From a virus (Duplodnaviria > Caudoviricetes): a stretch of 64,000 bases of DNA. The position numbers and the translations under genes were made by a program. This document shows, piece after piece, positions 42,262 through 55,789 of the stretch (positions are counted from its first letter, which is position 1; every line of letters starts with the position of its first letter). The notes below the pieces were generated by a model. The model had not been told where the DNA came from, did not search any database, and worked only from the letters and a program-made list of their open reading frames with translations. The stretch lies in IMG/VR virus record IMGVR_UViG_3300047561_001970, positions 21,100-85,099 of that record; one strand, 5' to 3'.

Positions 42262-42963
42262 TTATAGGAAAAACCTGCTCTTTGTAGCGTTATAGTTCTG
42301 CAGGATTTCTGTTTGGGATAATGCTCGGTTGTATATGGTTACATTATGCAAATTTGAGTTTGTATCAGAGGGTCTCCCTTGTGCGTTTCCTATTGTCAAC
42401 GTATCAGAATTAGTCAAATTACCTAAAGTGAAACTATTATTTGTAACAGATGATATGAGCTGCCCATTTCTATATTGTCTTAATGTATTGTTTAAGCCAT
42501 TATTAGATCTTTCGGCTACAAAGCTATAAAAACAAATAGAACTCAATATGTGTATTTGTGTAGAAGAGGTTATTAGATTTGGAGTAATATCATAGTAAAA
42601 TCCTGTGCTGTATCTAAAAGTAAATCCATTAAGTGAACCGGGGCTGGTTGTTGTACCTCTTTTAGTTAGATAACCACCATAGGTAGCTTCAATATTGAAT
42701 ATGTTACATATTAAATTTATACTAAAAGAACTTGTTCCAAAATTTCCTAAAGTATTGTTTGAGCATTGTATTGAACTGCCATTGAGATTTATACTTCCAC
42801 CGTATTCGTTTAAAAATGTAAAACTTCCAAGATTGAAATCATTGTTATTATTACTTAAATCTCTCCAAACACTTCCACTTCTTGGATAACTCTTATTATT
42901 AGCAGCATCCAAAGCAAGGATCAATCCATCAGTAACTATTCTGGGTGAATGGTGAAAGCTCAT
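42262..42963 (-). CDS. LamG/concanavalin-A-like domain virion protein
   Basis: PRIVTDGLILALDAAN.KSYP.SG..W.DLS; IYNRALS..EILQNYNATK.RF. Start 42963 via ATGA overlap. Confidence 0.85.
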   Translation of the reverse strand: MSFHHSPRIVTDGLILALDAANNKSYPRSGSVWRDLSNNNNDFNLGSFTFLNEYGGSINLNGSSIQCSNNTLGNFGTSSFSINLICNIFNIEATYGGYLTKRGTTTSPGSLNGFTFRYSTGFYYDITPNLITSSTQIHILSSICFYSFVAERSNNGLNNTLRQYRNGQLISSVTNNSFTLGNLTNSDTLTIGNAQGRPSDTNSNLHNVTIYNRALSQTEILQNYNATKSRFFL

Positions 42964-44231
42964 GTTTCGCCCCATGTCACCCAGTGTGACCAAGTTCCTG
43001 ATCGGTTGGTATAATTGGGATTACCAGAAACACCTGTTCCCCATTTTAAACCATTAGGAAATGATCCACAAGACGTTCCGTCGTAACCAGCACCTATGGC
43101 ACCAATGGAATCACTCCAACTGCATGGAGATTGTACATTATTATAAATGCCATGGCCTCCAGCGGACCCAAGATGAACTCTTCTGTAAGCATACCCACTG
43201 TCTGCAGCTAAAAAAGAAATTGTATTGTATTGTTTAAAGGTGTTGAAATAAACAGCAGCACGTTGATCCAGGGTATCTCTTTGAACTAGCAAGCCTTGCA
43301 TAGGGACATTCTGATCTATTTCATTCACAGTTGCAGCAGACTCATATGCGGATCGAAATGTGCAACAAAATGGTTTACTATCATAATAATTAGATCTGTA
43401 TTCCATTTGACGAACAGCTGTCATTCTGCCTGCTCTGAAATAGTATGTATTGCCAGATGTTGCACCTGACTCTTGAGCTTGATAAGGACTAATAAAAGGT
43501 GAAGATGCACTACCATCAGCAAAGCGTCCAAAAACAGAAGCTGCTTGAGTTTTATAGTTGGTATAAATTTCTCCAGGAGATAGGGGTCTGTTATAAACTC
43601 GGATGGTCATTATGTTGCCATTGAGATAATAACCTCGACCTCCACTAACATTACCATTGAATCCACCAAATGCACCTATGGAACACCCATTAGCATTTGT
43701 TTGAATTGTTCCTGCTTGAGTATCTGACCCTACAAGAATACTATTGACATAAACACGCCTGTTGCCACTAGTAAAAGTGCCCACTATATGATTCCATGCA
43801 TTTGTAGATATGGCGCTATATGGTACATCCACTAATTGATTATAGCTACCACCAAAATTTTGTCTAAATACTATGAAGCCACCTTCAAAGAACAAACTAT
43901 ATTGTGTGTTTACATTGCCTTTCTCAAAAATAAATCCATTCTGATTTGTAGTTGCAGATTTAACCCAAGATTCAATGGTGAGTGTCTGTGTGTTGAGTCT
44001 GGATGGCTCGGGAATAATTATTACAGTATCGCTGCCGTTGAAAGCAAATCCGCTTGATGAATTAAAAACAGGGTTGTTGACCAATTGTGCTGCATCAGTA
44101 GAAGTGCGTGTTGAAATATCTTTCCACGTGGTTTTACCTGCATTGAACGAATTAGGGTTGCTAGCATCCAGATATAACTGCAACCCATCTCTTACTATTC
44201 TAGGGCCAGCGAAACCATAACTGGTAGCCAT
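42960..44231 (-). CDS. LamG domain plus additional C-terminal domain, virion protein
   Basis: PRIV.DGL.LYLDA.N..S, T..SWVK, WNHIVGTF....R.VYVN, IRVYNRPLS..EI..NY; Cys-containing C-terminal domain unassigned. Confidence 0.8.
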   Translation of the reverse strand: MATSYGFAGPRIVRDGLQLYLDASNPNSFNAGKTTWKDISTRTSTDAAQLVNNPVFNSSSGFAFNGSDTVIIIPEPSRLNTQTLTIESWVKSATTNQNGFIFEKGNVNTQYSLFFEGGFIVFRQNFGGSYNQLVDVPYSAISTNAWNHIVGTFTSGNRRVYVNSILVGSDTQAGTIQTNANGCSIGAFGGFNGNVSGGRGYYLNGNIMTIRVYNRPLSPGEIYTNYKTQAASVFGRFADGSASSPFISPYQAQESGATSGNTYYFRAGRMTAVRQMEYRSNYYDSKPFCCTFRSAYESAATVNEIDQNVPMQGLLVQRDTLDQRAAVYFNTFKQYNTISFLAADSGYAYRRVHLGSAGGHGIYNNVQSPCSWSDSIGAIGAGYDGTSCGSFPNGLKWGTGVSGNPNYTNRSGTWSHWVTWGET

Positions 44232-44232
44232 A

Positions 44233-47200
44233 TCAGCACTCCACAGTCAAATGGGGTATGTCTTTTCTTATGGCAGTAAATGTCCAATAAAATTCATACT
44301 CCTGTCTATCCAGCCAATTTCTTTTTACACCTACAGAAAAGGTATTGCTGGGTACATCCACTCTTTTTACAAATAATACCTTATCGTGGTTTATGTTGGT
44401 CAGTTGTATGTTTGCATTGTCTGCATGCACCAGTGCGCTAATATAATCAGGCAATTGTATAATTACTTCATCCTGCTTGATGCATGATTTGCCAGTTAAG
44501 CGCACACCGTGGTATGGGGATTCTAGACTACCATATTGAAGCTTTTTGTCTGTGTGCAAGGGGTGATCAATTAAGAATGACTTGGTGCTTGCAGTAATGT
44601 GATTAAAGTATCCAATGCCTGATGCGCTGATATTACCCACCACTGTGAGTTTTTCGTTGGGTGTTATGGTGCCCATGCCAATGTTGCCATTGTCAATGAT
44701 GCGCATCACATTGCTGGTGCTAAATGTACCAAAATTGATATACCCTGTGAGTCCACTGCCCCCAGCTTTGATGCTAACGGAGTTTATGTTGTTTGAGAAT
44801 GTGCCAACATCAATGTTGCCAGTTGAGTCTTGATAATTAAAAATGGATCTCTGTTGACCATTGGATCTTCTCACATACATGCCTCCTGATGTGGCACCCC
44901 GGGTGAAGTCCATTATCAATGCTGCATCAGTAACTGTGTCAAATGCTGTGAAGGTGGATGGTGCACACACAATGCCCTGAGTGGTGCTCAGACTGCCAGT
45001 TACAGTTAAGTTGTTGTTGTTTGCCTCCAAAACATTGACCCGGCTTGTGTTGTTCGTTCCTGCGCCCACCACAAACAATGCATTATTGTTTGGGTTGTTG
45101 TATTTGCCTACAACAGCCTGGTATGGTGTGCTGCTTAATGAGATTAAACCTTCGCCACCTAATGCTACAGAATTATCACTGTAAACGGCATTGTAATCAC
45201 CAGCAAATGTACCGGATTTGTTCCCTAACACTGCTCCACGGAAGCCTAGACCATAAGAATAATTGCCATAAGATTCTGAATTTCCTAAAGAAACATTCTT
45301 GATCATTCCACCGCTCAGATAATTTGTGCCGTCAAAATACCAAGGCTCCCGTTCAAAGTAAAATCCTGTGGTACCGAAAGTGGGGCGATGCACTGTGTCT
45401 TGTGTGCCACCATACAATACCCAGCCGGCAGTGCCAGTAGCCTCTATGGGCCAGAACCTGTTTTCAAAGCTGTATGAATCCATCAAATTGCACAAAGCAA
45501 ATTCCATGTCTGTGCCGCTCACACTGATCACAAATGCATCAAAGTATCCAGTGCGCACACCACTGGGGAATGTGCCTTGTGCAAATGTAGCAATTTTATC
45601 GGATGTGATGAAGCCAGTGCCTATGGGAGATGTGGAAGGCATGGCAGTGGGTATCCACAGTGTCAAAGGAGAGCCAGGTTTGTATGCTGTGAGAATGTTG
45701 GCAGTAGTAAAACGAGCCAGTGCATGTTTGTTCATGCCCCTGTAACTGCCTGTGAGGCCCACATACTGTGTGCTGGGATTGGTACCAATTTGACTGGCAA
45801 TCAGACTCACACCTGGATTGCCTCCATTGGCACGAGATTTCAAATTGATGGCTTGTGTGCCACGTGAAGCTGGTACCCAATTGGTGCCAGAGCCAATGAA
45901 GAAATCAAATTTGTAAGCTGTTAATGTGCCAGTGGCATTGGAAGACACTTGGGTACATTGTGAATTGAAAGTGACTGCATTTAATCCTACCAGCCCAGGA
46001 TTCACCACAATGCCTACCACAGATCCAGGGGTGATGAGATTGTAATTAACTGGTGCAGAATATGCATCTAGCAGGATAACAACACCAGACAGTCTGTCTG
46101 TGCTGGTGATCAGGGTGGCATTTGTGGTGTCAATGATGCCACTGGTGGCTGTGATGGTGGTGCTGTCTTGATATTGTGGCAAGGTGTGCACCATGAATCG
46201 TTGTGTGTATGTGTTGGCACCATAACCATACACATTCAATGAACCACCATTGGTCATTTGCCATGATTGTGTGGGGTTGAAGGGTGCACCTTGCCATTGC
46301 ACGTGATTGTGATCTGCTCCCCCTGTGAAATTGTTGATGCCAGCACGAAATGCCATGGCATGGGTAACTGCTGCACGGCCATCACTGATGAGTGTACTGC
46401 CTGGATCCATGTCATTCACATTTTGCAGCCATAGACCATATGTACCATAACCAGGTAAATTTTGAATACTAGTGCTATAATCCGGGGAATGGCCTTTTAT
46501 AATAAAGCCACCGGGAGATGCAAATGTACCTTGAGAATTAAAATAACCAGAATTATTAGTGAGTGTAGAACTTAGTGTTGGGTAGGATGCATTTTTTACA
46601 AATGTAGCAAAGCTAGGAGAGAAGAGATTACCAGCAGTAGAAATGGTACCATAGAACGTGGCACTATTATTGACTGTTAGAGTTCCATTAATTGAGCTAT
46701 CACCAAGTGAGCTATAGCCTCGAGCAAAATATGCATCACTCAAAACACCCAAGTTACCTGCTATCGTAGCATTATTATCAACCAGTATAGATGTGGTCTC
46801 TATACTACCTGCTCTTAGATTCTGTACATATGCTCCCCCCAAATCATAGACGTTTATGGCATCCACTCCATTACTCAAATACATGTACCGGCCTTTAATT
46901 TGTGCAGATACCATCATATTGTATGACCCACCACCGGCAGATGTGATATACCTTATAACTTTAGGAGCATATGGATTACTGATGTCCATCACACACATAA
47001 CTTGAATGAATGGGCCGGCGCCAATCTGACATGGTATGTACAAATAATCTCCATCAATAATTGGCTCTGAGTATGCTGCTATGGAAGGTAGGCCTGCAAT
47101 TGTTGTTACCAATACTGGTGCACCTACCACACTGTACACTCTCAATGCATTTGAGTCACATACATAAGCAAAATTATTTTTAACAGCTAGGCCGTTCATT

Positions 47201-50200
47201 GAGCCAGAATACGAGGCAGTCCCTTTGCTTGTTGGTGTTCTAGGATCAGTTATATTCCACTTTTGCAGAACAGCTGTACCAAATGTATTGTATGCATAGT
47301 AGAGGTTTTGACCTTGCACAATGAGATTTCGTGGTGCAAGAGATCCATCAACTACACCAAACACTCGGACTGGAGCAACTGGGTTGCTGATGTCGTAAAC
47401 AGTTAATCTGCCTGGGCCGGGGTAGGAAGTCCCATAGGCAAGAGCGAACAAATAATTGCCCTGTATCTGTATGCTGCTGCCATTATCTGGGTGAGCTATG
47501 TAACCTGCTGATGCTATGGAATTGCTTGTTGTGTTGTATACACGTATGCCCTGACTTTCAGATACATACACATATGCACCACGCACTGCTAATGCATTTG
47601 TGCCACCATAGACACTTGATCCTATGGCTGCACTAGCCACAAGAGCAAGGGTGGTATCAGAGCCAGACAATACATATTGTTGGACAGAAAAAGGAGTATA
47701 CAAATACAAATAATTGTCTTGCATCCTTAGAGTAGTTGCGTATGATGTTACCGGTGTAGAGCTAATTTTTTTAATATTGCCTCTGACATCTAGAGGCGCA
47801 ATAGGTGTATTGGTATAAAATCCTGCGTATCCAGATATCGGCTCAACATACATACCAGACATGGCAGATACAGGTGTTGCAGTGGAAATACTATTTGCAT
47901 TGGGGCCTGCATACACCCCGCCAAGGTAAATAAAATTAGATGACAGGTAATCTAATGTGGTGTACCTCCCGCTAATGCTGTTATATGAATTGTACACACT
48001 GTTCCATTGATTGCTGTTGCCACCTGATGCTGTTATTTGCTTGTTTGCACTTATGGCACCATTGACTGTCAATTCCACAGCAGGGTAGCTTTCATTGATG
48101 CCAACCTTGCCACCCTGACCGGCATTGGCATTGCCTACATGCAGCACTTCCACACCGTCACCATCATAAAAACTGGCCACATCAGATGTACCAGCAGCTT
48201 GAAACACATACAAAGCAGGTCCTGGACCTGCGTTCACCACACTCAAAGCGCTGGTGGTAGTGAAGATGGTATTTTTAAATGTGCTGGTGCCGAGGGCAGT
48301 TAAGTTGCCATTAATGGTGACATTTTTACTGAATGTAGTGTTTTGATTGGTGTAAGCAATGTAGGCACTGCTCAATAGAAGAGTGCCAGAATCGTCAGGC
48401 AAACAAACTACCCTGCTTTGTGTTGCTGTTCCTAAGAGAGTGGTACGCGTGGTGTAATTGCCAAATTGTATTGTACCGCGTCCTCTTGTGTCAATGTAAC
48501 CACCACCATTTGATGTGTCAATAAACCCCCCATCACCCAAGTAAGCAGCGGCTGTGTTAATGTACCCACCTGCACCATCATCATTTCCCACTGTGTTAAT
48601 AAACCCACCAGCATGTATGCCATCGCTATGTGTATCAATGAAACCACCATTTTTTGAAGTGTCAATGTATCCGCCCGGTCCTTCAATTGTCCCATGAGTA
48701 TCAATATACCCCCCTGTATAATCAATATTATAACCTGTTGTTTGAATATACCCACCATATCCAGAGGTATCTATGTACCCGCCAACACTTGAAGTATTAA
48801 TATATCCTCCTTGGCCAGCAGCGCCAGAAGTATTGATTGAACCCCCGGCTCCTTCACCTTCCACCCCCCGGGTATCAATATAACCACCAGTTTCCGTCTC
48901 ACCATCTGCAGATGTGTTTATGAAACCACCTGGTAGGAGACCACCATTGCCACCAAATGTGTCAATAGAGCCACCACCATTAGATGTATTGATGTGTCCT
49001 CCGTTAGCACCACCAGCAGAGGTGTTTATATAACCTGCAACCAAGCCACTTCCAGCAGGTGCACTCACATTTATATCTGCCCCACCGTATGAGGTATTTA
49101 ACGATCCAGCTGATCCTTCATCGCCACCATACATGTTTATTGATCCAGCCCCACCAGTACCATCTGAACCTAAGTTTATACTGCCACCAATATTCGAAGT
49201 ATTAATATATCCACCCTCATTCGAAGTATTAATAGATCCACCCTCAGTCGAAGTATTAATAGATCCACCCACATTCGAAGTATTAATACTTCCACCAGCA
49301 TTTGACATATTCAAAGTTCCGCCTGGACTACTGCCACCCCCACCACCTGTAGATATTATAGACCCACCAGGACTTCCATCCGCAGCACCAGCACTCAAAT
49401 CAATAGACCCACCGCCAGCTAAATTACCAGAATCATCAACTAAAGACCCTTGAAGATTGATTGAGCCACCATTGCCAAAATGACTACTTGTATTAATAGA
49501 TCCGCCTGTACCAAATGCCCCACCAGAGGTGTTTATTGAACCGCCATTATAGCCACCCCCACCACCTTGCGTATTGATTGACCCGCCATAAGTGCTGGTA
49601 TCGATCGCGCCACCCATATCTGAAGTGTTAATTGAACCGCCAGTACCATTATTACCAGCAGAAGTGTTTATTGACCCGCCAGCACCATTTGCGTTACCCG
49701 AAAGATTTAGCAAACCACCACCATTAGAGGTGTTTATTGACCCACCAGGTCCATCACCTCCACCAGATGTATCTATAGAACCACCATACCAAGCATCGCC
49801 AATACTAGCTAGGCCAGAAGTGTTGATTGAGCCTCCATAAGCTCCAAACGCACCCCCGCCTTTCATAGTCAATGAACCACCATTGCTCAAGGCACCGGAT
49901 AAATCTATGCTACCTCCATGACCTCCATCTGGCGCGCCAGCACTTGTGTTGATGTTGCCTGCGTTTGCAACATTATCACCATCTGTAGAACCAGTCATAG
50001 TAATAGATCCACCTTTAGCCCCACCAGAGTCAAGTGTGTTTAAAGAATAACCATTTGGATTAGTATTATTTGGAAGAACAAGGGGGTTAGTTAGCCCACC
50101 GCCACCACCTGTACCAAAGTAATTGGATATGTCTCTGCCACCAGATAATATGTGACCATTTATATTCAGATCACCATTCATGACTCCACCATTGGCATAT

Positions 50201-50820
50201 TGCACAGCCACTGAACCACCCCCACCTCCCAGGTCCAGAATCTTGCGTGAATAATCATACACTGCTTTGTCAATGTATTCCTTGAGCTCTTCCAGTGTGG
50301 TTTTGGCTTCTTTCTGCTGCTTGACAGTTCCTGTGTCTTTAATTTTTTCCAATTCATCAATATATGAAGTTATTTGCTTGTCTGCAGGCTCCTCCAGCTC
50401 AGAAGCTGTTGATATGTTGGTGACTTCTTCCTGCTCCATTGCACTGGAATGTTGTGCTTTGAGTTTTGCCTTTTCAATTGCATCTTTTATTTTCTGTGCC
50501 AAATCTTTCACAGGTTGGTCTGTCTCCACTGTGGTGATTGGCTCAGATTGTGTGATGATGGGGCTTATTTCCTGTATTATAGTTTGGTTGACTATAACCT
50601 GCTCTGTGGACACGACAGGTTCCTTGAATGGTAGTTTTGCAGATATGGTATTACCAATTTTATTCAAAAAGCTAGCAAACGGATCCTCTTGTTCCTTAAC
50701 TATTTCCGTAGCGGAAGCAGAAGCATACACAGCCTCCATTATATGTTTATGATCTTTAGCAACTTGAATTTTTTTTGCTAAATTACCAATAAAGTTTGAT
50801 AAAGGGTCTTCGGCGGGCAC
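44233..50820 (-). CDS. 2195-aa long tail fibre/adhesin: acidic N-terminus, about 40 GG(S/Y/F)I(N/D)T repeats, LVIVD-type propeller, YadA-head-like segment, C-terminal chaperone-like domain
   Basis: GTG start 4 nt after ATTAAATA (50832-50825). LTVYDISNP..P, ..GNYL.., VMDISNPY.P (LVIVD); NSVALGG; IG.GT..P..KL.V.GNISASG; C-terminal KSFLIDHP....K.L.YGSLESPYHGVRL.G. Confidence 0.8.
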   Translation of the reverse strand: MPAEDPLSNFIGNLAKKIQVAKDHKHIMEAVYASASATEIVKEQEDPFASFLNKIGNTISAKLPFKEPVVSTEQVIVNQTIIQEISPIITQSEPITTVETDQPVKDLAQKIKDAIEKAKLKAQHSSAMEQEEVTNISTASELEEPADKQITSYIDELEKIKDTGTVKQQKEAKTTLEELKEYIDKAVYDYSRKILDLGGGGGSVAVQYANGGVMNGDLNINGHILSGGRDISNYFGTGGGGGLTNPLVLPNNTNPNGYSLNTLDSGGAKGGSITMTGSTDGDNVANAGNINTSAGAPDGGHGGSIDLSGALSNGGSLTMKGGGAFGAYGGSINTSGLASIGDAWYGGSIDTSGGGDGPGGSINTSNGGGLLNLSGNANGAGGSINTSAGNNGTGGSINTSDMGGAIDTSTYGGSINTQGGGGGYNGGSINTSGGAFGTGGSINTSSHFGNGGSINLQGSLVDDSGNLAGGGSIDLSAGAADGSPGGSIISTGGGGGSSPGGTLNMSNAGGSINTSNVGGSINTSTEGGSINTSNEGGYINTSNIGGSINLGSDGTGGAGSINMYGGDEGSAGSLNTSYGGADINVSAPAGSGLVAGYINTSAGGANGGHINTSNGGGSIDTFGGNGGLLPGGFINTSADGETETGGYIDTRGVEGEGAGGSINTSGAAGQGGYINTSSVGGYIDTSGYGGYIQTTGYNIDYTGGYIDTHGTIEGPGGYIDTSKNGGFIDTHSDGIHAGGFINTVGNDDGAGGYINTAAAYLGDGGFIDTSNGGGYIDTRGRGTIQFGNYTTRTTLLGTATQSRVVCLPDDSGTLLLSSAYIAYTNQNTTFSKNVTINGNLTALGTSTFKNTIFTTTSALSVVNAGPGPALYVFQAAGTSDVASFYDGDGVEVLHVGNANAGQGGKVGINESYPAVELTVNGAISANKQITASGGNSNQWNSVYNSYNSISGRYTTLDYLSSNFIYLGGVYAGPNANSISTATPVSAMSGMYVEPISGYAGFYTNTPIAPLDVRGNIKKISSTPVTSYATTLRMQDNYLYLYTPFSVQQYVLSGSDTTLALVASAAIGSSVYGGTNALAVRGAYVYVSESQGIRVYNTTSNSIASAGYIAHPDNGSSIQIQGNYLFALAYGTSYPGPGRLTVYDISNPVAPVRVFGVVDGSLAPRNLIVQGQNLYYAYNTFGTAVLQKWNITDPRTPTSKGTASYSGSMNGLAVKNNFAYVCDSNALRVYSVVGAPVLVTTIAGLPSIAAYSEPIIDGDYLYIPCQIGAGPFIQVMCVMDISNPYAPKVIRYITSAGGGSYNMMVSAQIKGRYMYLSNGVDAINVYDLGGAYVQNLRAGSIETTSILVDNNATIAGNLGVLSDAYFARGYSSLGDSSINGTLTVNNSATFYGTISTAGNLFSPSFATFVKNASYPTLSSTLTNNSGYFNSQGTFASPGGFIIKGHSPDYSTSIQNLPGYGTYGLWLQNVNDMDPGSTLISDGRAAVTHAMAFRAGINNFTGGADHNHVQWQGAPFNPTQSWQMTNGGSLNVYGYGANTYTQRFMVHTLPQYQDSTTITATSGIIDTTNATLITSTDRLSGVVILLDAYSAPVNYNLITPGSVVGIVVNPGLVGLNAVTFNSQCTQVSSNATGTLTAYKFDFFIGSGTNWVPASRGTQAINLKSRANGGNPGVSLIASQIGTNPSTQYVGLTGSYRGMNKHALARFTTANILTAYKPGSPLTLWIPTAMPSTSPIGTGFITSDKIATFAQGTFPSGVRTGYFDAFVISVSGTDMEFALCNLMDSYSFENRFWPIEATGTAGWVLYGGTQDTVHRPTFGTTGFYFEREPWYFDGTNYLSGGMIKNVSLGNSESYGNYSYGLGFRGAVLGNKSGTFAGDYNAVYSDNSVALGGEGLISLSSTPYQAVVGKYNNPNNNALFVVGAGTNNTSRVNVLEANNNNLTVTGSLSTTQGIVCAPSTFTAFDTVTDAALIMDFTRGATSGGMYVRRSNGQQRSIFNYQDSTGNIDVGTFSNNINSVSIKAGGSGLTGYINFGTFSTSNVMRIIDNGNIGMGTITPNEKLTVVGNISASGIGYFNHITASTKSFLIDHPLHTDKKLQYGSLESPYHGVRLTGKSCIKQDEVIIQLPDYISALVHADNANIQLTNINHDKVLFVKRVDVPSNTFSVGVKRNWLDRQEYEFYWTFTAIRKDIPHLTVEC
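48480..50030 (-). repeat. In-frame array of about 40 degenerate GG(S/Y/F)I(N/D)T(S/x) repeats, including a 4 x 27-bp tandem at 49193-49300
   Basis: Counted by eye in the translation; DNA unit TTCGAAGTATTAATA(T/G)ATCCACCCTCA is repeated four times. Confidence 0.9.
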
Positions 50821-50853: not shown

Positions 50854-51219
50854 ATGCATGATGTAATTAGAGACCTTCTGCAAATGCAGAATCAATTGCG
50901 CATATTTCATTGGCAGACCAAAAGCTATGCAGCACACAAAGCGCTAGGCAAAGCTTATGAAAGTCTTGACGAACTCATTGATACTTTTGTGGAAACAGCG
51001 CTGGGCCGCAAGGAAGCCAGCTTCATCAACGGCAGCATGACCATCAATTTGTTTGATAGTCATAAATTAACTCATGCAGATGCTCTTGAGACATACAAAA
51101 CATTTCTATGTGAATTCAGTCAAAAATTAAGCCCAGACAACGACACAGACCTCACCAACATAAGAGATGAAATGCTAGGTGTGCTCAATCACACAAGTTA
51201 CCTGCTGACATTAAAATAA
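50854..51219 (+). CDS. Ferritin/Dps-like four-helix protein (DUF5856-like)
   Basis: Q.Q.RIFHWQT.SYA.HKALG..YE.L.EL.D.FVE...G; L.NI.DEM.......YLLTL. Confidence 0.8.
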   Translation: MHDVIRDLLQMQNQLRIFHWQTKSYAAHKALGKAYESLDELIDTFVETALGRKEASFINGSMTINLFDSHKLTHADALETYKTFLCEFSQKLSPDNDTDLTNIRDEMLGVLNHTSYLLTLK

Positions 51220-52140
51220 TTACTGTCTGACAGTCTTAGGAAAGTATTTAAACTTGTCCCACATGGCATGATTCTGCTGCAATAGTTCTTGGCTATTTGA
51301 TCTGATTGGATTGATGTCTATGCCACCTCGTCTCACATACAAACAGGATACCATCAATTCTTCTGGCTTGGTCAGATCATGTAGCCGCTTGTAAATGGTT
51401 TCACATATCTCTTCATGAAAATGACATTCGTCCCTGAATGACACAATGTATTGCAACAGAGAGGTCTGATTGAGTTCACAAGATCCTTTATAATGAATAT
51501 ACACATCCCCCCAATCCGGTTGAGATGTGACCCTGCAATTGCTCTTTAATAAGGCTGAATGAAAGCGCTGCACTTTGCTGCTATCACCTTTCACCCACCC
51601 CAGCAATGCAGGGTCTTCTTTGTAACCTCTAGATTTAATAGCAGTAACATCAATGTGGTTCTCAAGTGTAGGATATGTTGCACGAGGGAACAAGGGAGGA
51701 TAATACATTGCATCATCAATTGCTTGTGTGAGGCGGGTGTACACCTGTACATCTGTTTCCAGCAATGCAGAGAGATCACCAGATATTTTTGCTTCCAGCT
51801 GTTGCAACACGCTAACGATACTGCCACTGAACTTCTCCATGTTAAAGGAGTTCATGTAAAGTTTGATGGACTTTGACTCTACAATATATTTGTTTGTGGC
51901 AGGATACACAATCTTGGCAATGGCAGCAATGGGCATGCCTTCATTTGTCAAGCAAGATACTTCATAGGCATTCCAAATATCATAACCACAAAATGGAGGG
52001 TTGTCATCGCTAATATCCAAATGCTTGCGATTATTGGCTCTGGGTTCACGTACCAACAGTGAGGGGTCATAAGTTGATATGTAACCGGTTATTTTACCAA
52101 GATGCTTTGATATGTTACTATTATCTAATTCCGTATTCAT
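51220..52140 (-). CDS. queF: NADPH-dependent 7-cyano-7-deazaguanine (preQ0) reductase, bimodular E. coli-type
   Basis: Y...YDPSLL, G.D.W.AYE.S.L, VESKS.KLY.NSFN, SNC.VT.QPDWG (catalytic Cys/Asp), SFR....FHE..CE.I, Y.RRGGIDINP.R. Confidence 0.95.
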   Translation of the reverse strand: MNTELDNSNISKHLGKITGYISTYDPSLLVREPRANNRKHLDISDDNPPFCGYDIWNAYEVSCLTNEGMPIAAIAKIVYPATNKYIVESKSIKLYMNSFNMEKFSGSIVSVLQQLEAKISGDLSALLETDVQVYTRLTQAIDDAMYYPPLFPRATYPTLENHIDVTAIKSRGYKEDPALLGWVKGDSSKVQRFHSALLKSNCRVTSQPDWGDVYIHYKGSCELNQTSLLQYIVSFRDECHFHEEICETIYKRLHDLTKPEELMVSCLYVRRGGIDINPIRSNSQELLQQNHAMWDKFKYFPKTVRQ

Positions 52141-52699
52141 TGAGTTTTATTTTAATCGCTTCCATGCGTTCTTCCACTGTTCCTCTTAAGATAGTTATCT
52201 TTTTTTTCAGTCTCTCATCTTTTAACCAAAAATTTTCATACAAATCAATAATTGCATTTCTAAATTCTTTATTACCACTTCTCTCCCCATCATCCACCAG
52301 TGGCACATCATGAGGACTTGGGTAAAAAATATGATCATATTTGTGAATATAGTTCACATAATACATTACCCCTAAGCTACTAGATACTAGAAAATATTTT
52401 AGCTTATCTCTTGCAAAATAACTTGTATACACCATGCCATCCATCAAACAACGATCATGCAATATGCCCTGAAATCCAAATCCTTTATAGTTATAAAATA
52501 AGTTTTCAAACTCTTTGTTTAGAATCAAGGTCTGCGTCACATCATTGGCACCAGTTTCATTGATATCTACCCCATGCTCACGCTTAATTAACCGCGTAAC
52601 CTCATCAATGTAGCAAAGCTTGGAACCATAATACTCCCTGCACTTCTTCAAGAGAGTAGTCTTACCTGAACACTGTGGACCTGTGAAAGTGAATATCAT
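52121..52699 (-). CDS. P-loop nucleotide kinase (AAA_28/NadR-like, dNMP-kinase-like)
   Basis: TGPQCSGKTTL (Walker A), DE..R, HDRC..D...Y, DDG.R, LRGTVEER. Confidence 0.8.
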   Translation of the reverse strand: MIFTFTGPQCSGKTTLLKKCREYYGSKLCYIDEVTRLIKREHGVDINETGANDVTQTLILNKEFENLFYNYKGFGFQGILHDRCLMDGMVYTSYFARDKLKYFLVSSSLGVMYYVNYIHKYDHIFYPSPHDVPLVDDGERSGNKEFRNAIIDLYENFWLKDERLKKKITILRGTVEERMEAIKIKLNEYGIR

Positions 52700-52866
52700 T
52701 TGCGTCTTAACAAGGCAGTATACTCTATTTCCAGGTCGAACACAAGCTTTTTAAGCATCTTTATCTCTTGCCAGAGAATTTTATTCTCCTGCAGGATGAT
52801 ATCATAATCCTTTTCAAGTTGTTTGACCTTGCCATTCCATGTCCGCCATGCATTCATTAATGACAT
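52696..52866 (-). CDS. 56-aa coiled-coil protein (absent from the ORF track)
   Basis: MSLMNAWRTWNGKVKQLEKDYDIILQENKILWQEIKMLKKLVFDLEIEYTALLRRK; fills the gap exactly, with ATGA coupling to the kinase gene. Confidence 0.65.
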   Translation of the reverse strand: MSLMNAWRTWNGKVKQLEKDYDIILQENKILWQEIKMLKKLVFDLEIEYTALLRRK

Positions 52867-52871
52867 ACTTG

Positions 52872-53069
52872 TTACTTTATGATGCCGAACACTTTTAATG
52901 CAATGAGCATGGATATCCAGAAGCCTGTAAACGAAGACAGTGTGCGCAGCAGCTCCATTTTATGATTATGAAAATCAAGCCAAACCTCAAAATCACTTCT
53001 CAATTTGTTTTTTTTCATTAATCTGTGCAATTGTTTTTTTGGAAGTTTATTAATATTAATAAGTCTCAT
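52872..53069 (-). CDS. 65-aa basic protein with one C-terminal transmembrane helix
   Basis: Lys-rich N-terminus then TLSSFTGFWISMLIALKVFGII; abuts both neighbours. Confidence 0.6.
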   Translation of the reverse strand: MRLININKLPKKQLHRLMKKNKLRSDFEVWLDFHNHKMELLRTLSSFTGFWISMLIALKVFGIIK

Positions 53070-53417
53070 TCACTTGCCCCATTTACCATTATATACTATT
53101 TCAGCAATAATGCCATACACTGCAGAATCTCTGAATGCATCCATGACTGGTTCATTTGCGGAATTCATGGCCTTTTTCTTCAGAACCAAATTAATTAGCC
53201 GCTGTATTTTGTCATTCAGACGCACCACAATGGCAGATATTGCAGCAAATATATCTTCCTGCTTTACTAAATCAGATCCAAGAGAGATATTGCCTGGCCC
53301 ATAATCAAATTGTTTCTTGCAAAACGTTTCATATAATTCTGCCTGTATTTTCTGAAATTCTTTGCATGTTTCTGGAAAATTCTTCTCAACGTATTTAACA
53401 ATATCTTCTTTGTTCAT
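53070..53417 (-). CDS. Nucleotide modification-associated domain 1 (Nmad1/DUF1599, MazG-like all-alpha fold)
   Basis: F..KQ.DYG..NI, I.VRL.DKI.RL.NL, EP..D.F.D..VYGII. Confidence 0.8.
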   Translation of the reverse strand: MNKEDIVKYVEKNFPETCKEFQKIQAELYETFCKKQFDYGPGNISLGSDLVKQEDIFAAISAIVVRLNDKIQRLINLVLKKKAMNSANEPVMDAFRDSAVYGIIAEIVYNGKWGK

Positions 53418-54373
53418 AATCTTACCCCGTACACAACGTTATTTAAATTTAAAGCACCAAGATTGCAACCACCAGCATAGCTAATTGCACTTTGCAGGTC
53501 TTGTTTAATTTCCTCAAGCTTTTCAAGATATGTAAAGGTATCAGTCTCCATTAATTTCATAGTGCCTTCAATATTTTTCTTCTCAATTTTGTTGTGTACA
53601 CTTGCTGAACCAAAATATTGCTTGAATTTTCTACCGCTTGCATCCTTGACAAGTGGGGCTGGGCTGTCAGAGCAAGCTGCAAATATAGATCCACACATCA
53701 CCATGCTGGCACCAGCCACTAGTGCTTTGGCAATATCACCGTTGCAACGCACCCCACCATCTGCAATAATGGGGATGCTCTTGTCCTTGGCACATTCTAA
53801 TACACAACTGAACATGGGATACGTGAATCCAGTCTTATCCTTTGTTGTGCAGGCATAACCTCCCCCAATACCAACCTTGACAGCATCTGCACCAACCATG
53901 TGCAAGTATTCCACACCTTGCAGTGTGGCAACATTGCCTGCAATGACCTTTGTACCAGGTAAAACTTGTTTGATATGACTAATTTGTTCTGCAACCTTTG
54001 CATGGTGACCATGGGCAACATCTATAGTAACAAAATCTACTCTCATCATGCTTTGTGCAATGGATGTTAGCAAATTTTTATCTTTTTGTTGTATTCCTAC
54101 ACTTATTGAAACCACATTAAACTTTTGTACATTAGCAAAGCGTACAAAATTATGAACATCCTCACCAAACCTATGCATAATATAAAAATATCCATGTTTA
54201 TCAAGAAGTGCACATGTGTCTGTATCGACACAGCACTTCATGTTGGCGGGTATCACTGGTAGTTTGAATGTATGACCACAAAACGATGTGTCTGTATCAA
54301 TTTCCGTTCTAGACTGTACTGAACTATAGCTAGGCTTGAGAAAAACGTCTTGGTATTGTAGTGATATATCCAT
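53414..54373 (-). CDS. guaC: GMP reductase (Bacillus-type)
   Basis: LPVIPANM, VSISVG, IDVAHGH, IAGNVAT, KVGIGGG.ACTT (catalytic Cys), PIIADGG.R..GDIAKAL.AGA.MVM.GS, YFGSAS..NK...NIEG. Start set at ATG 54373. Confidence 0.92.
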   Translation of the reverse strand: MDISLQYQDVFLKPSYSSVQSRTEIDTDTSFCGHTFKLPVIPANMKCCVDTDTCALLDKHGYFYIMHRFGEDVHNFVRFANVQKFNVVSISVGIQQKDKNLLTSIAQSMMRVDFVTIDVAHGHHAKVAEQISHIKQVLPGTKVIAGNVATLQGVEYLHMVGADAVKVGIGGGYACTTKDKTGFTYPMFSCVLECAKDKSIPIIADGGVRCNGDIAKALVAGASMVMCGSIFAACSDSPAPLVKDASGRKFKQYFGSASVHNKIEKKNIEGTMKLMETDTFTYLEKLEEIKQDLQSAISYAGGCNLGALNLNNVVYGVRL

Positions 54374-54374
54374 A

Positions 54375-54944
54375 TCAGCGGTGTAAAATTTTATATGTGG
54401 TGAAAAAACTTTTCCAAAGATCAAGTGCAGTGTGTCGCAAGGCACCATACACTCCATTCAAATCCATGCCCTCAATACCTATCCCTTGACTCATCAACAC
54501 ATCACCTTCATCTACACCTGGTGTAACCCGATGTATCACGCAACCTGCTAGCTTATACCCCTCTGTAAACGCTCTTTCTTGGGGGTTGAATCCTTTGAGT
54601 GCAGGGAACTTATCAATAAGACCTGGGTGTAAATTGTATATTTCATATTTTTCACAAATCTCTTTTGGAATAATTCTTAAAAACCCATGCAATGTAATAA
54701 CTGGATTTTTAAAGCTCTGCAGAGCATTCTCATAATCTTTTACTATAGGCTTTTGCGGCAGCTGTATCCATATATTCTCATTAAGCTTTTGAGATCTAAA
54801 CTTAGTTGTTTCAACTAGTCCGATATTAGTAGCTTTATGGTCTTGCTTATTTGTTATGACAGCATCAGGATATATGCCAAGTGCATTACTAAGATCATAT
54901 ATCTCAGTACCAGTTTGCGAAAAAAATGTTACCCAAGGTCTCAT
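54375..54944 (-). CDS. PurN-like formyltransferase, probable preQ1 formyltransferase (DpdN-type)
   Basis: FFSQTG, L.GFLRIIP, YNLHPGL...FP.LKG, GCVIHRVT.GVDEG: formyl-THF binding motifs. Context with QueF and the DpdA-like gene. Confidence 0.8.
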   Translation of the reverse strand: MRPWVTFFSQTGTEIYDLSNALGIYPDAVITNKQDHKATNIGLVETTKFRSQKLNENIWIQLPQKPIVKDYENALQSFKNPVITLHGFLRIIPKEICEKYEIYNLHPGLIDKFPALKGFNPQERAFTEGYKLAGCVIHRVTPGVDEGDVLMSQGIGIEGMDLNGVYGALRHTALDLWKSFFTTYKILHR

Positions 54945-55747
54945 CTACGAATAATCCTCTTAAACATTGTAGTATTGTAATTTACAAGTTCAAGCTGATC
55001 ATCTGTGAAATTATGTGTAATGAGGTCCGCCAATTTAGTTGACGGTTTATTATCTAAACCATAATCAGCATCATACTTCAATCCATGGATAGCAGCAACA
55101 ATGGGATTGCTGGTGTCACAACTAACAATATTGTGAATATTTTTATCAACATAATATCTAAACTCTTTAGCTAAGGAACAACCAAGCAAGTGATGAGGTT
55201 TGTTCCAATTCCATACACCTGCATTTATTAGCTCAGCAATGAAGCGCTGTCGACCGGAACACCATTTCTCCAGATGTGTTTTGCCTTCACCTGTAATTTG
55301 ATAATAACTAAAATCAAAACTAATGGCAATCATGTCAGCATTATCAGACATGAACTTGTAACATTCCTTGAGTTCGTGCCAGTTTTTACCTTGCACAGCA
55401 CCTATAGCCTTTGTAAGAAAACTACTCTTAATATCATTTGTATGATGTTCAAACGCTTTGAAGCTCTGCATTGTACTTGCAGCATCTTCAAGTACATCTG
55501 GAACAATGAACATATTAGGCTTAATTTCCATTGTTTTTACCCAAAATTCACGACTATCAAAAGCTTTGCCCAGTTCAAAGATGGAATTGTCAAGTAACAC
55601 TTCTCTGTTGTATGCAATTCTACCAAATTTAAAGAAGTCACAGTATGCAGGGTATTGATCCAGGAGATGCACCAAACAATAGTCAAAATCATTGTATTCT
55701 CTGGAATAATCAAGTATGGATAGAGGAGACTCATGTGATACTTTCAT
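54941..55747 (-). CDS. Divergent TGT/DpdA-like TIM-barrel protein (7-deazaguanine insertion, DpdA3-like)
   Basis: LLDNS.FELG, PDV, AVQG, HHLLG, SCDTSNP match the TGT-fold motif order; first gene of an operon with QueF and the PurN paralog. Start set at ATG 55747. Confidence 0.6.
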   Translation of the reverse strand: MKVSHESPLSILDYSREYNDFDYCLVHLLDQYPAYCDFFKFGRIAYNREVLLDNSIFELGKAFDSREFWVKTMEIKPNMFIVPDVLEDAASTMQSFKAFEHHTNDIKSSFLTKAIGAVQGKNWHELKECYKFMSDNADMIAISFDFSYYQITGEGKTHLEKWCSGRQRFIAELINAGVWNWNKPHHLLGCSLAKEFRYYVDKNIHNIVSCDTSNPIVAAIHGLKYDADYGLDNKPSTKLADLITHNFTDDQLELVNYNTTMFKRIIRR

Positions 55748-55760
55748 GATCCCATTGTAA

Positions 55761-55789
55761 AGTATACACACTATAAATCAATTCATCAA
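55761..55789 (-). promoter_or_regulatory. Sigma70-type early promoter TTGATG-N17-TATACT for the modification operon
   Basis: -35 at 55789-55784, -10 at 55766-55761, exact 17-nt spacer; back-to-back with late box ATTAAATA (55789-55796) of the opposite gene. Confidence 0.65.

Follow-up and report, generated by a model that had tools for sequence, protein, structure and literature searches.

DpdA3 proteins form a subfamily of phage 7-deazaguanine transglycosylases that was defined from three groups of phages, those of immuto_2-6A, Campylobacter phage CP220 and Cellulophaga phage phiST (Hutinet 2023, PMC10516641). All three tested DpdA3 phages were found to be 100% substituted, compared with at most 30% for the other DpdA subfamilies, and the DNA of immuto_2-6A contained 345,000 formyl-preQ1 (fdPreQ1) per 10^6 nucleotides and no deoxyguanosine (dG) (PMC10516641). 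Here we describe a DpdA3-containing operon of eight minus-strand open reading frames (ORFs), running from 55747 to 51220, in a 64,000-nucleotide stretch of viral DNA, hereafter the window, which corresponds to bases 21100-85099 of the 85,099-bp linear IMG/VR contig IMGVR_UViG_3300047561_001970 (completeness ~40% by CheckV). Four of its genes were orthologous to and syntenic with those of immuto_2-6A, the sole phage with measured fdPreQ1, and since the DNA of that phage is fully substituted, the operon appears to be a new member of the known fdPreQ1 system. Whichever mechanism is used, it is very likely that the operon encodes the late half of a DpdA3-type fdPreQ1 guanine-replacement pathway, in agreement with the initial annotation, which had described a module for a formylated 7-deazaguanine.

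Comparison with the cultured phages revealed a shared core with several additions. The immuto_2-6A genes are arranged in the order DpdA3, a small ORF, DpdN, a 'thymidylate kinase' and QueF, and the order DpdA3-DpdN-kinase-QueF was the same in the window, with sequence identities of 44% for DpdA3, 42% for DpdN, 27% for the kinase and 45% for QueF. In the window operon, and not in immuto_2-6A, DpdN and the kinase are separated by a GMP reductase, an Nmad1 protein and two small ORFs. Conversely, immuto_2-6A carries a PRA-PH pyrophosphohydrolase two genes upstream of DpdA3 and a phosphoribosyltransferase (PRTase) in the cluster. The genes for preQ0 synthesis appear to be phage-encoded in the lineage of the window, as they are in immuto_2-6A, although they are scattered in the former and adjacent in the latter. 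In addition, the window phage is uncultured and known from its genes alone, whereas the base composition of immuto_2-6A was measured. CP220 and phiST, in which dADG and dDG, respectively, account for 100% of G, possess DpdA3 homologs with 47% and 29% identity; unlike the window, both phages stop at CDG-derived bases and contain neither QueF nor DpdN. The gene directly upstream of DpdA3 in CP220 encodes a protein with HD and AAA_33 domains, and the one directly downstream an orthologous AAA_28 kinase, while in phiST a MazG gene lies three genes upstream and the adjacent P-loop kinase-type protein is not detectably homologous to the window kinase. The gene set itself is known, and the window is one more diverged, enlarged example of it.

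The initial annotation had described a single tightly coupled operon encoding a tRNA-guanine transglycosylase (TGT)/DpdA-like protein, a PurN paralog, a GMP reductase, Nmad1, two mini-ORFs, a nucleotide kinase and QueF. All eight ORFs were found in place, the junctions of -4, +1, -4, 0, +5, -4 and -20 nt in order confirmed their tight coupling, and the gene identities were supported by Pfam, NCBIfam and PHROGs matches and by orthologs. A megablast search of the operon against phage records gave no match. The window capsid protein was at most 36% identical to any cultured-phage capsid, and relatives of the window encode Gp23, T4_CASP and an S77 prohead protease; on these grounds, the source appears to be an uncultured, deep-branching T4-like phage.

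The first gene of the operon (54941-55747, minus strand) encodes a 268-residue protein that matched phrog_19058 (2.3e-55) and the DpdA protein of immuto_2-6A (YP_010114477; 44% identity, 3e-68). A tblastn search with this protein reached only the Flavobacterium immuto phages (44%), the Campylobacter CP220 group (47%) and the Cellulophaga phiST group (29%, CGPG_00065), which are the three groups that define DpdA3. No match was obtained with Pfam, NCBIfam or the PADLOC DpdA profiles, and a profile search of PDB sequences was also empty. The TGT family PF01702 was not matched by the protein even at E-values up to 10, and no match to this family was found anywhere on the contig; for the phiST homolog, an HHpred probability of 98.8% to PF01702 has been reported (Hutinet 2023, PMC10516641). 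DUF6610, a DpdA4-type family, was weakly matched by 8 of 18 family members. The product of 54941-55747 grouped with DpdA3 and not with the tRNA TGTs. The start at 55747 given in the initial annotation was borne out, as the homology begins at this ATG; the GTG at 55771, which gives the longest ORF, was rejected.

To compare the protein with known structures, we used an alignment and an AlphaFold2 model built from the 18 family members. The model (pLDDT 92, pTM 0.89) revealed a (beta/alpha)8 barrel of the TGT type, and the top 50 PDB matches in a Foldseek search were all TGTs, with a best E-value of 1.3e-8. Superposition on the archaeosine TGT (1iq8) and the Z. mobilis TGT by VIA-align gave a Z-score of 18.2 and a root mean square deviation of 2.8-3.0 over ~232 of the 268 residues. 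The barrel fold is thus common to the predicted DpdA3 and the tRNA TGTs, including E. coli Tgt, at 12-13% identity. In contrast to the tRNA TGTs, the protein is ~100 residues shorter, lacks the Zn cluster and lies in a phage DNA-modification context. In particular, no invariant Cys/His cluster (the CxCxxC...H Zn site) was present in the 18-sequence alignment, and the C-terminal 60 residues contained no Cys; because no such cluster is conserved, the TGT Zn site appears to be absent. Four aspartates, D53, D84, D138 and D211, were invariant, and each is located at a strand end or next to one (strands 50-53, 79-81, 139-143 and 207-212). Alignment of the family profile with E. coli Tgt by hhalign paired the expected motifs (GAVQGK with GIIQGS, KPHHLLGCS with KPRYLMGVG, and CDTSNP with FDCVMPTRN), yet at a probability of only 2.3%, and the residue-level equivalence to D102 and D280 of TGT rests on this pairing. 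Because of its homology to the DpdA3-defining groups, its TGT fold and its missing Zn site, the 268-residue protein is predicted to belong with DpdA3 rather than with the tRNA TGTs.

The DpdA3 family was abundant, with 5520 clusters in the metagenome protein collection. Among the longer homologs, P0121 and P0122 (531-566 residues) were natural fusions of an N-terminal DpdA3 with a C-terminal bimodular QueF. From these fusions it can be read only that a free base is used by DpdA3, a need common to both mechanisms discussed below. Other arrangements were DpdA3 followed by a NUMOD3 homing-endonuclease motif in P0124 and a 300-residue N-terminal half of unknown nature joined to DpdA3 in P0123.

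The second gene (54375-54944, minus strand) encodes DpdN, a PurN-like formyltransferase of 189 residues (Formyl_trans_N, 2.2e-16) that is a proposed N-formylase of preQ1 or dPreQ1. It was 42% identical to the prototype YP_010114479 (8e-54) at a syntenic position. The residues equivalent to N106, H108 and D144 of PurN were retained as N104, H106 and D145. An N-terminal SxxG(S/T) loop was also kept, which aligned with 9-SGNGS-13 of PurN, a loop that we take to bind the phosphate of glycinamide ribonucleotide. At the other end of the operon, 51220-52140 (minus strand) encodes a bimodular QueF of 306 residues, the predicted NADPH-dependent reductase of preQ0 to preQ1. Its QueF_N (1.8e-33) and QueF (9.5e-23) domains exceeded the Pfam cut-offs, while the TIGR03138 score of 261 bits was below the cut-off of 293. 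The protein was 45% identical to immuto QueF (1e-85), and the ESKSIKLY motif and the catalytic Cys in SNCRVTSQPDWG were present. Between them, 52121-52699 (minus strand) encodes a predicted AAA_28 P-loop nucleotide or nucleoside kinase of 192 residues (AAA_28, 3.3e-13, 50.6 bits against a cut-off of 27; phrog_2107 'thymidylate kinase', 2.3e-20). Its orthologs included immuto gp203 (27%, 3e-13) and CP220 gp057 (31%, 1e-15). Across 14 orthologs, the invariant residues were G12-K13 of Walker A, D82-R83 of a DRC motif, D137-G138-x-R140 of a DGxRS lid, and R147.

Two further proteins are encoded between DpdN and the kinase. The predicted GuaC-type GMP reductase (53414-54373, minus strand), which we regard as accessory, contained a continuous IMPDH/GMP reductase domain (9e-57) and scored 333.8 bits with NF003966 (cut-off 344) and 295.8 bits with TIGR01306 (cut-off 465.65). 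A start at 54457, which gives a 347-residue ORF, was rejected on the basis of the junction sequence and of relatives that have 319-321 residues; the most likely start, judged from the sequence, is the ATG at 54373, one base past the DpdN stop, which gives 319 residues. The probable Nmad1/DUF1599 protein (53070-53417, minus strand; 115 residues) matched phrog_1485 (7.8e-12). The window copy had no Pfam match of its own, and 8 of 11 orthologs matched PF07659 (DUF1599, i.e. Nmad1) with a best E-value of 1.8e-4. A tblastn search retrieved, at 31-34% identity, RefSeq genes whose annotation reads DUF1599 or 'nucleotide modification associated domain'. The AlphaFold2 model of Nmad1 (pLDDT 90) contained four helices, and the invariant residues were K35, Q36, D38, Y39, G40, R66, D69, K70, R73, N88, E89, D93 and D97. 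A Foldseek search with this model found nothing at E <= 0.001.

The early genes of the pathway had been expected outside the window, which our findings support. QueC was found on the same contig (G000:C1:2208-2951), and FolE, QueD, a QueE-like gene (7e-10 to immuto QueE) and QueC with an amidotransferase were found in the complete 217-kb relative G001, whose DpdA3 is 86% identical to that of the window. On the window contig, QueC lies in a segment (G000:C1:1730-3641) ~17.5 kb before the window start, just past a RecA/UvsX-like gene, in which a cytidylyltransferase-like gene, QueC and a stand-alone class-II glutamine amidotransferase adjoin one another, the last two at G000:C1:2208-3641. The QueC-amidotransferase pair was also kept in G001 and may represent a QueC that is fed by glutamine, as distinct from the Gat-QueC of dG+ phages. 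We also observed in G001 that a second AAA_28/dNK-like kinase paralog of 248 residues, with a similarity of 5e-7 to the operon kinase, adjoins the QueE-like gene (L088:3352-4849), near PhoH, QueD and FolE.

To understand which parts of the operon are conserved, we compared 74 related IMG/VR loci, of which 54 had at least 4.5 kb downstream of DpdA3 and were used for counts; their DpdA3 proteins were 40-87% identical to that of the window. The kinase was found downstream of DpdA3 in 52 of the 54 loci. QueF was present in the operon in 45, DpdN in 43 and Nmad1 in 41. The six-gene architecture of the window was found in 14 loci, and GMP reductase alone was missing in 24. GMP reductase and Nmad1 are optional parts of the operon. 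Five loci (L076-L079 and L087) had DpdA3 followed directly by the kinase, without QueF, DpdN and Nmad1, and these phages probably install a different 7-deazaguanine. In L076, a GMP reductase gene is located 4 kb upstream and a PRTase gene 2 kb downstream. An Nmad1 homolog and a GMP-reductase-like gene were also observed no more than 3-4 kb apart in Microcystis phage Mel-JY01 (L007) and the crAss-like phage cr108_1 (L008), within replication and nucleotide-metabolism modules. Because they are paired in such unrelated phages without deazaguanine genes, Nmad1 and GMP reductase appear to be general nucleotide-pool genes. The slot between Nmad1 and the kinase (52696-53069 in the window) was variable, holding two small ORFs here and a 330-residue reverse-strand ORF in L014 (L014:10682-11674), and the slot between the kinase and QueF held a radical-SAM/SPASM gene in G001 (L009:13446-14765); the slots flanking the kinase look like insertion hot spots.

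How these proteins would work together is best set against a classical example. In phage T4, a pathway of dCTPase (gp56), dCMP hydroxymethylase (gp42) and dNMP kinase (gp1) brings about complete base replacement. The reading that we prefer, at a probability of roughly 45%, is a nucleotide-level, pre-replicative exchange, in which every substrate is predicted from sequence and from analogy with such a scheme. In this model, preQ0 would be made by FolE, QueD, QueE and QueC from genes in other parts of the genome, and QueF would convert it to preQ1. DpdA3 would swap guanine for the 7-deazaguanine on a free guanine (deoxy)nucleotide, not on finished DNA, and DpdN would formylate the aminomethyl group. 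The AAA_28 kinase would then phosphorylate the product towards the triphosphate, which the phage polymerase would incorporate, and Nmad1 and GMP reductase, where present, would lower the competing guanine nucleotide pool. Such a scheme would explain complete substitution. Its logic of phosphohydrolase, base-modifying enzyme and dedicated kinase is the same as in T4, here again in a T4-like phage, and the likeness is a functional analogy: the proteins are unrelated, the T4 base is derivatised whereas here it would be exchanged, and the DpdA3 biochemistry is a proposal only. If it holds, DpdA3 would not be a DNA transglycosylase; it would be the first enzyme with a TGT fold whose base exchange takes place on a free guanine (deoxy)nucleotide, and together with the kinase and phosphohydrolase it would explain the 100% replacement in immuto_2-6A, CP220 and phiST; we put this extension forward tentatively, at rather less than even odds.

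Three points make us lean slightly towards the nucleotide-level model: the kinase is linked to DpdA3 almost universally, genes of the phosphohydrolase type lie nearby, and the DpdA3 phages tested are all completely substituted. The kinase linkage in 52 of 54 loci includes the five loci without QueF and DpdN, and a kinase also lies beside DpdA3 in immuto_2-6A and CP220 (orthologous) and in phiST (a non-orthologous P-loop protein). A gene of the NTP phosphohydrolase type was found at most three genes from DpdA3 in four of four lineages, namely PRA-PH in immuto_2-6A, HD in CP220, MazG in phiST and Nmad1 here. The second AAA_28 paralog beside QueE in G001, the SxxG(S/T) loop of DpdN, and the missing Zn cluster and isoelectric point of 6.0 of DpdA3 point in the same direction. 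To our knowledge, other completely substituted phage bases are likewise made pre-replicatively. Furthermore, the ADG nucleoside was seen in the cytoplasm of CP220-infected cells (PMC10516641). The nucleotide-level route had already been suggested in the initial annotation; the kinase linkage, within the 54 loci and in the other lineages, strengthens this suggestion, although none of our results separates it from an exchange at the DNA level with guanine salvage.

Several observations weigh against the nucleotide-level model. We know of no characterised enzyme of the TGT superfamily that does not act on a polynucleotide, either tRNA or DNA, and it is equally possible that the kinase acts on GMP, returning released guanine to the GTP that FolE uses. 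The related loci are not independent samples. GMP reductase was in the operon in only 14 of the 54 loci and elsewhere on 6 more, and Nmad1 was absent from 13 of the 54. No DpdA3-kinase fusion was found among the longer DpdA3 homologs, and no longer homolog was found for the kinase, with the limit that fusions of ~450 residues would fall in the 'near' length class of the 5520 matches. FolE, QueD and QueE/radical-SAM genes were not found on the 85-kb, 40%-complete contig. For Nmad1, structural comparison with the MazG chains 3cra and 1vmg by VIA gave a Z-score of 6.1, tied with many unrelated helical chains; hhalign against the immuto PRA-PH and the phiST MazG gave nothing, and phmmer against the PDB gave nothing decisive. 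Because MazG could not be told apart from unrelated helical proteins in these fold searches, calling Nmad1 a 'MazG-like dGTPase' is a guess. Finally, the study that introduced DpdA3 proposes that insertion is post-replicative (PMC10516641).

This published route is the strongest alternative, and we regard it as a serious candidate with the odds somewhat against it. Here, replication would proceed with dGTP, after which DpdA3 would excise guanine from the finished DNA and insert preQ1 or formyl-preQ1, with formylation by DpdN taking place on the free base or on dPreQ1 within DNA. Guanine, released in stoichiometric amounts, would be dealt with by the kinase, the PRTase of relatives and the GMP reductase (to GMP, and from there to GTP as the substrate of FolE, or to IMP), and Nmad1 would be a general helper of nucleotide metabolism. 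The TGT fold of DpdA3 suits such a route, as its known relatives act on polynucleotides, and the small PRTase found in the relatives G001-G004, L076 and immuto_2-6A fits guanine salvage. The kinase also faintly resembled guanylate kinases (phrog_1815, 4.6e-4; PDB guanylate kinases, E ~0.5). However, the hosts already have Gmk, so there is no obvious need for a phage GMP kinase beside DpdA3 in 52 of 54 loci. The NTP phosphohydrolase genes near DpdA3 in all four lineages are left without a role, a GMP reductase would waste the salvaged GMP, and we know of no purely post-replicative enzyme that has brought about 100% substitution.

A hybrid of the two routes appears improbable. In this case, a phage PRTase would use phosphoribosyl pyrophosphate to make a ribonucleotide of the 7-deazaguanine base, which the AAA_28 kinases and the phage class I ribonucleotide reductase would carry to the deoxynucleoside triphosphate for bulk incorporation, and DpdA3 would only mop up residual G in DNA. 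The conservation of a PRTase in relatives and in immuto_2-6A, the two AAA_28 paralogs, and the position of nrdA and nrdB 5-8 kb from the operon are all consistent with it. The PRTase, however, is unlinked, lying 10-22 kb from the operon in G001-G003, none was found on the window contig, and the signature gene of these systems is DpdA3 and not the PRTase. Beside FolE in G001, no homolog of the immuto PRTase was detectable. A third possibility, that the module serves queuosine-type tRNA modification or preQ1 supply instead of DNA, or that the final DNA base is unformylated (plain dPreQ1), is very improbable: QueF and QueC are also tRNA-queuosine enzymes, and DpdN activity has never been demonstrated biochemically, attempts in E. 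coli having failed (PMC10516641), but PF01702 is unmatched across the contig, the phages of the nearest characterised DpdA3 relatives all have fully substituted DNA, DpdN shares 42% identity and synteny with its counterpart in the one phage that has fdPreQ1, and loci without DpdN form a separate architecture.

The remaining features of the locus were as follows. Upstream of DpdA3, a promoter-like element of the sigma70 type, TTGATG-17-TATACT, was found on the minus strand at 55761-55789 (9 of 12 consensus matches), overlapping a second match, TTGATT-16-TACAAT, at 55781-55754. The initial annotation had placed a sigma70 promoter here. The consensus scan alone does not bear this out, as its 27 sites are not above chance (19.5 +/- 3.9 expected), whereas an upstream alignment revealed TTGA-N17-TATAAT conserved ~13 nt 5' of the DpdA3 ATG in 13 of 14 related loci; because the window element occupies this conserved position, a sigma70-type promoter is plausible. 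Neither mini-ORF had a family match. Mini-ORF 1 (52872-53069, minus strand) encodes 65 residues, is basic with a hydrophobic C-terminus, had no homolog among the 74 related loci and probably stands outside the pathway. Mini-ORF 2 (52696-52866, minus strand; 56 residues), which lies in the variable slot, weakly matched small ORFs at the equivalent position in ~9 loci (37-51% identity). Downstream, a convergent plus-strand DUF5856 gene (50854-51219) abuts the QueF stop codon (51220-51222) without a spacer, and no terminator-like hairpin was found between the two genes. Further on, a minus-strand ORF of 2195 residues without a Pfam match (44233-50820), beside Laminin_G_3 and sialidase-N-like proteins (42262-44231), probably encodes a giant tail fibre or adhesin.

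Taken together, uncultured T4-like phages very commonly carry DpdA3, a small kinase accompanies it in nearly every case, irrespective of which 7-deazaguanine is the end product, and genes of the NTP phosphohydrolase type repeatedly lie beside it. The main text of Hutinet 2023 (PMC10516641) never mentions a kinase and does not discuss this DpdA3-kinase/phosphohydrolase pattern. The pattern bears on the question of whether complete guanine replacement takes place before replication, on nucleotides, or on finished DNA, and on the answer depend the way in which such genomes escape restriction, the way in which they could be produced in vitro, and whether a TGT fold can act on mononucleotides. As immuto_2-6A, CP220 and phiST are cultured, the question of mechanism is directly testable. 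If DpdA3 does act at the nucleotide level, the published conclusion that every 7-deazaguanine modification of DNA is post-replicative would not hold for the most efficient subfamily.

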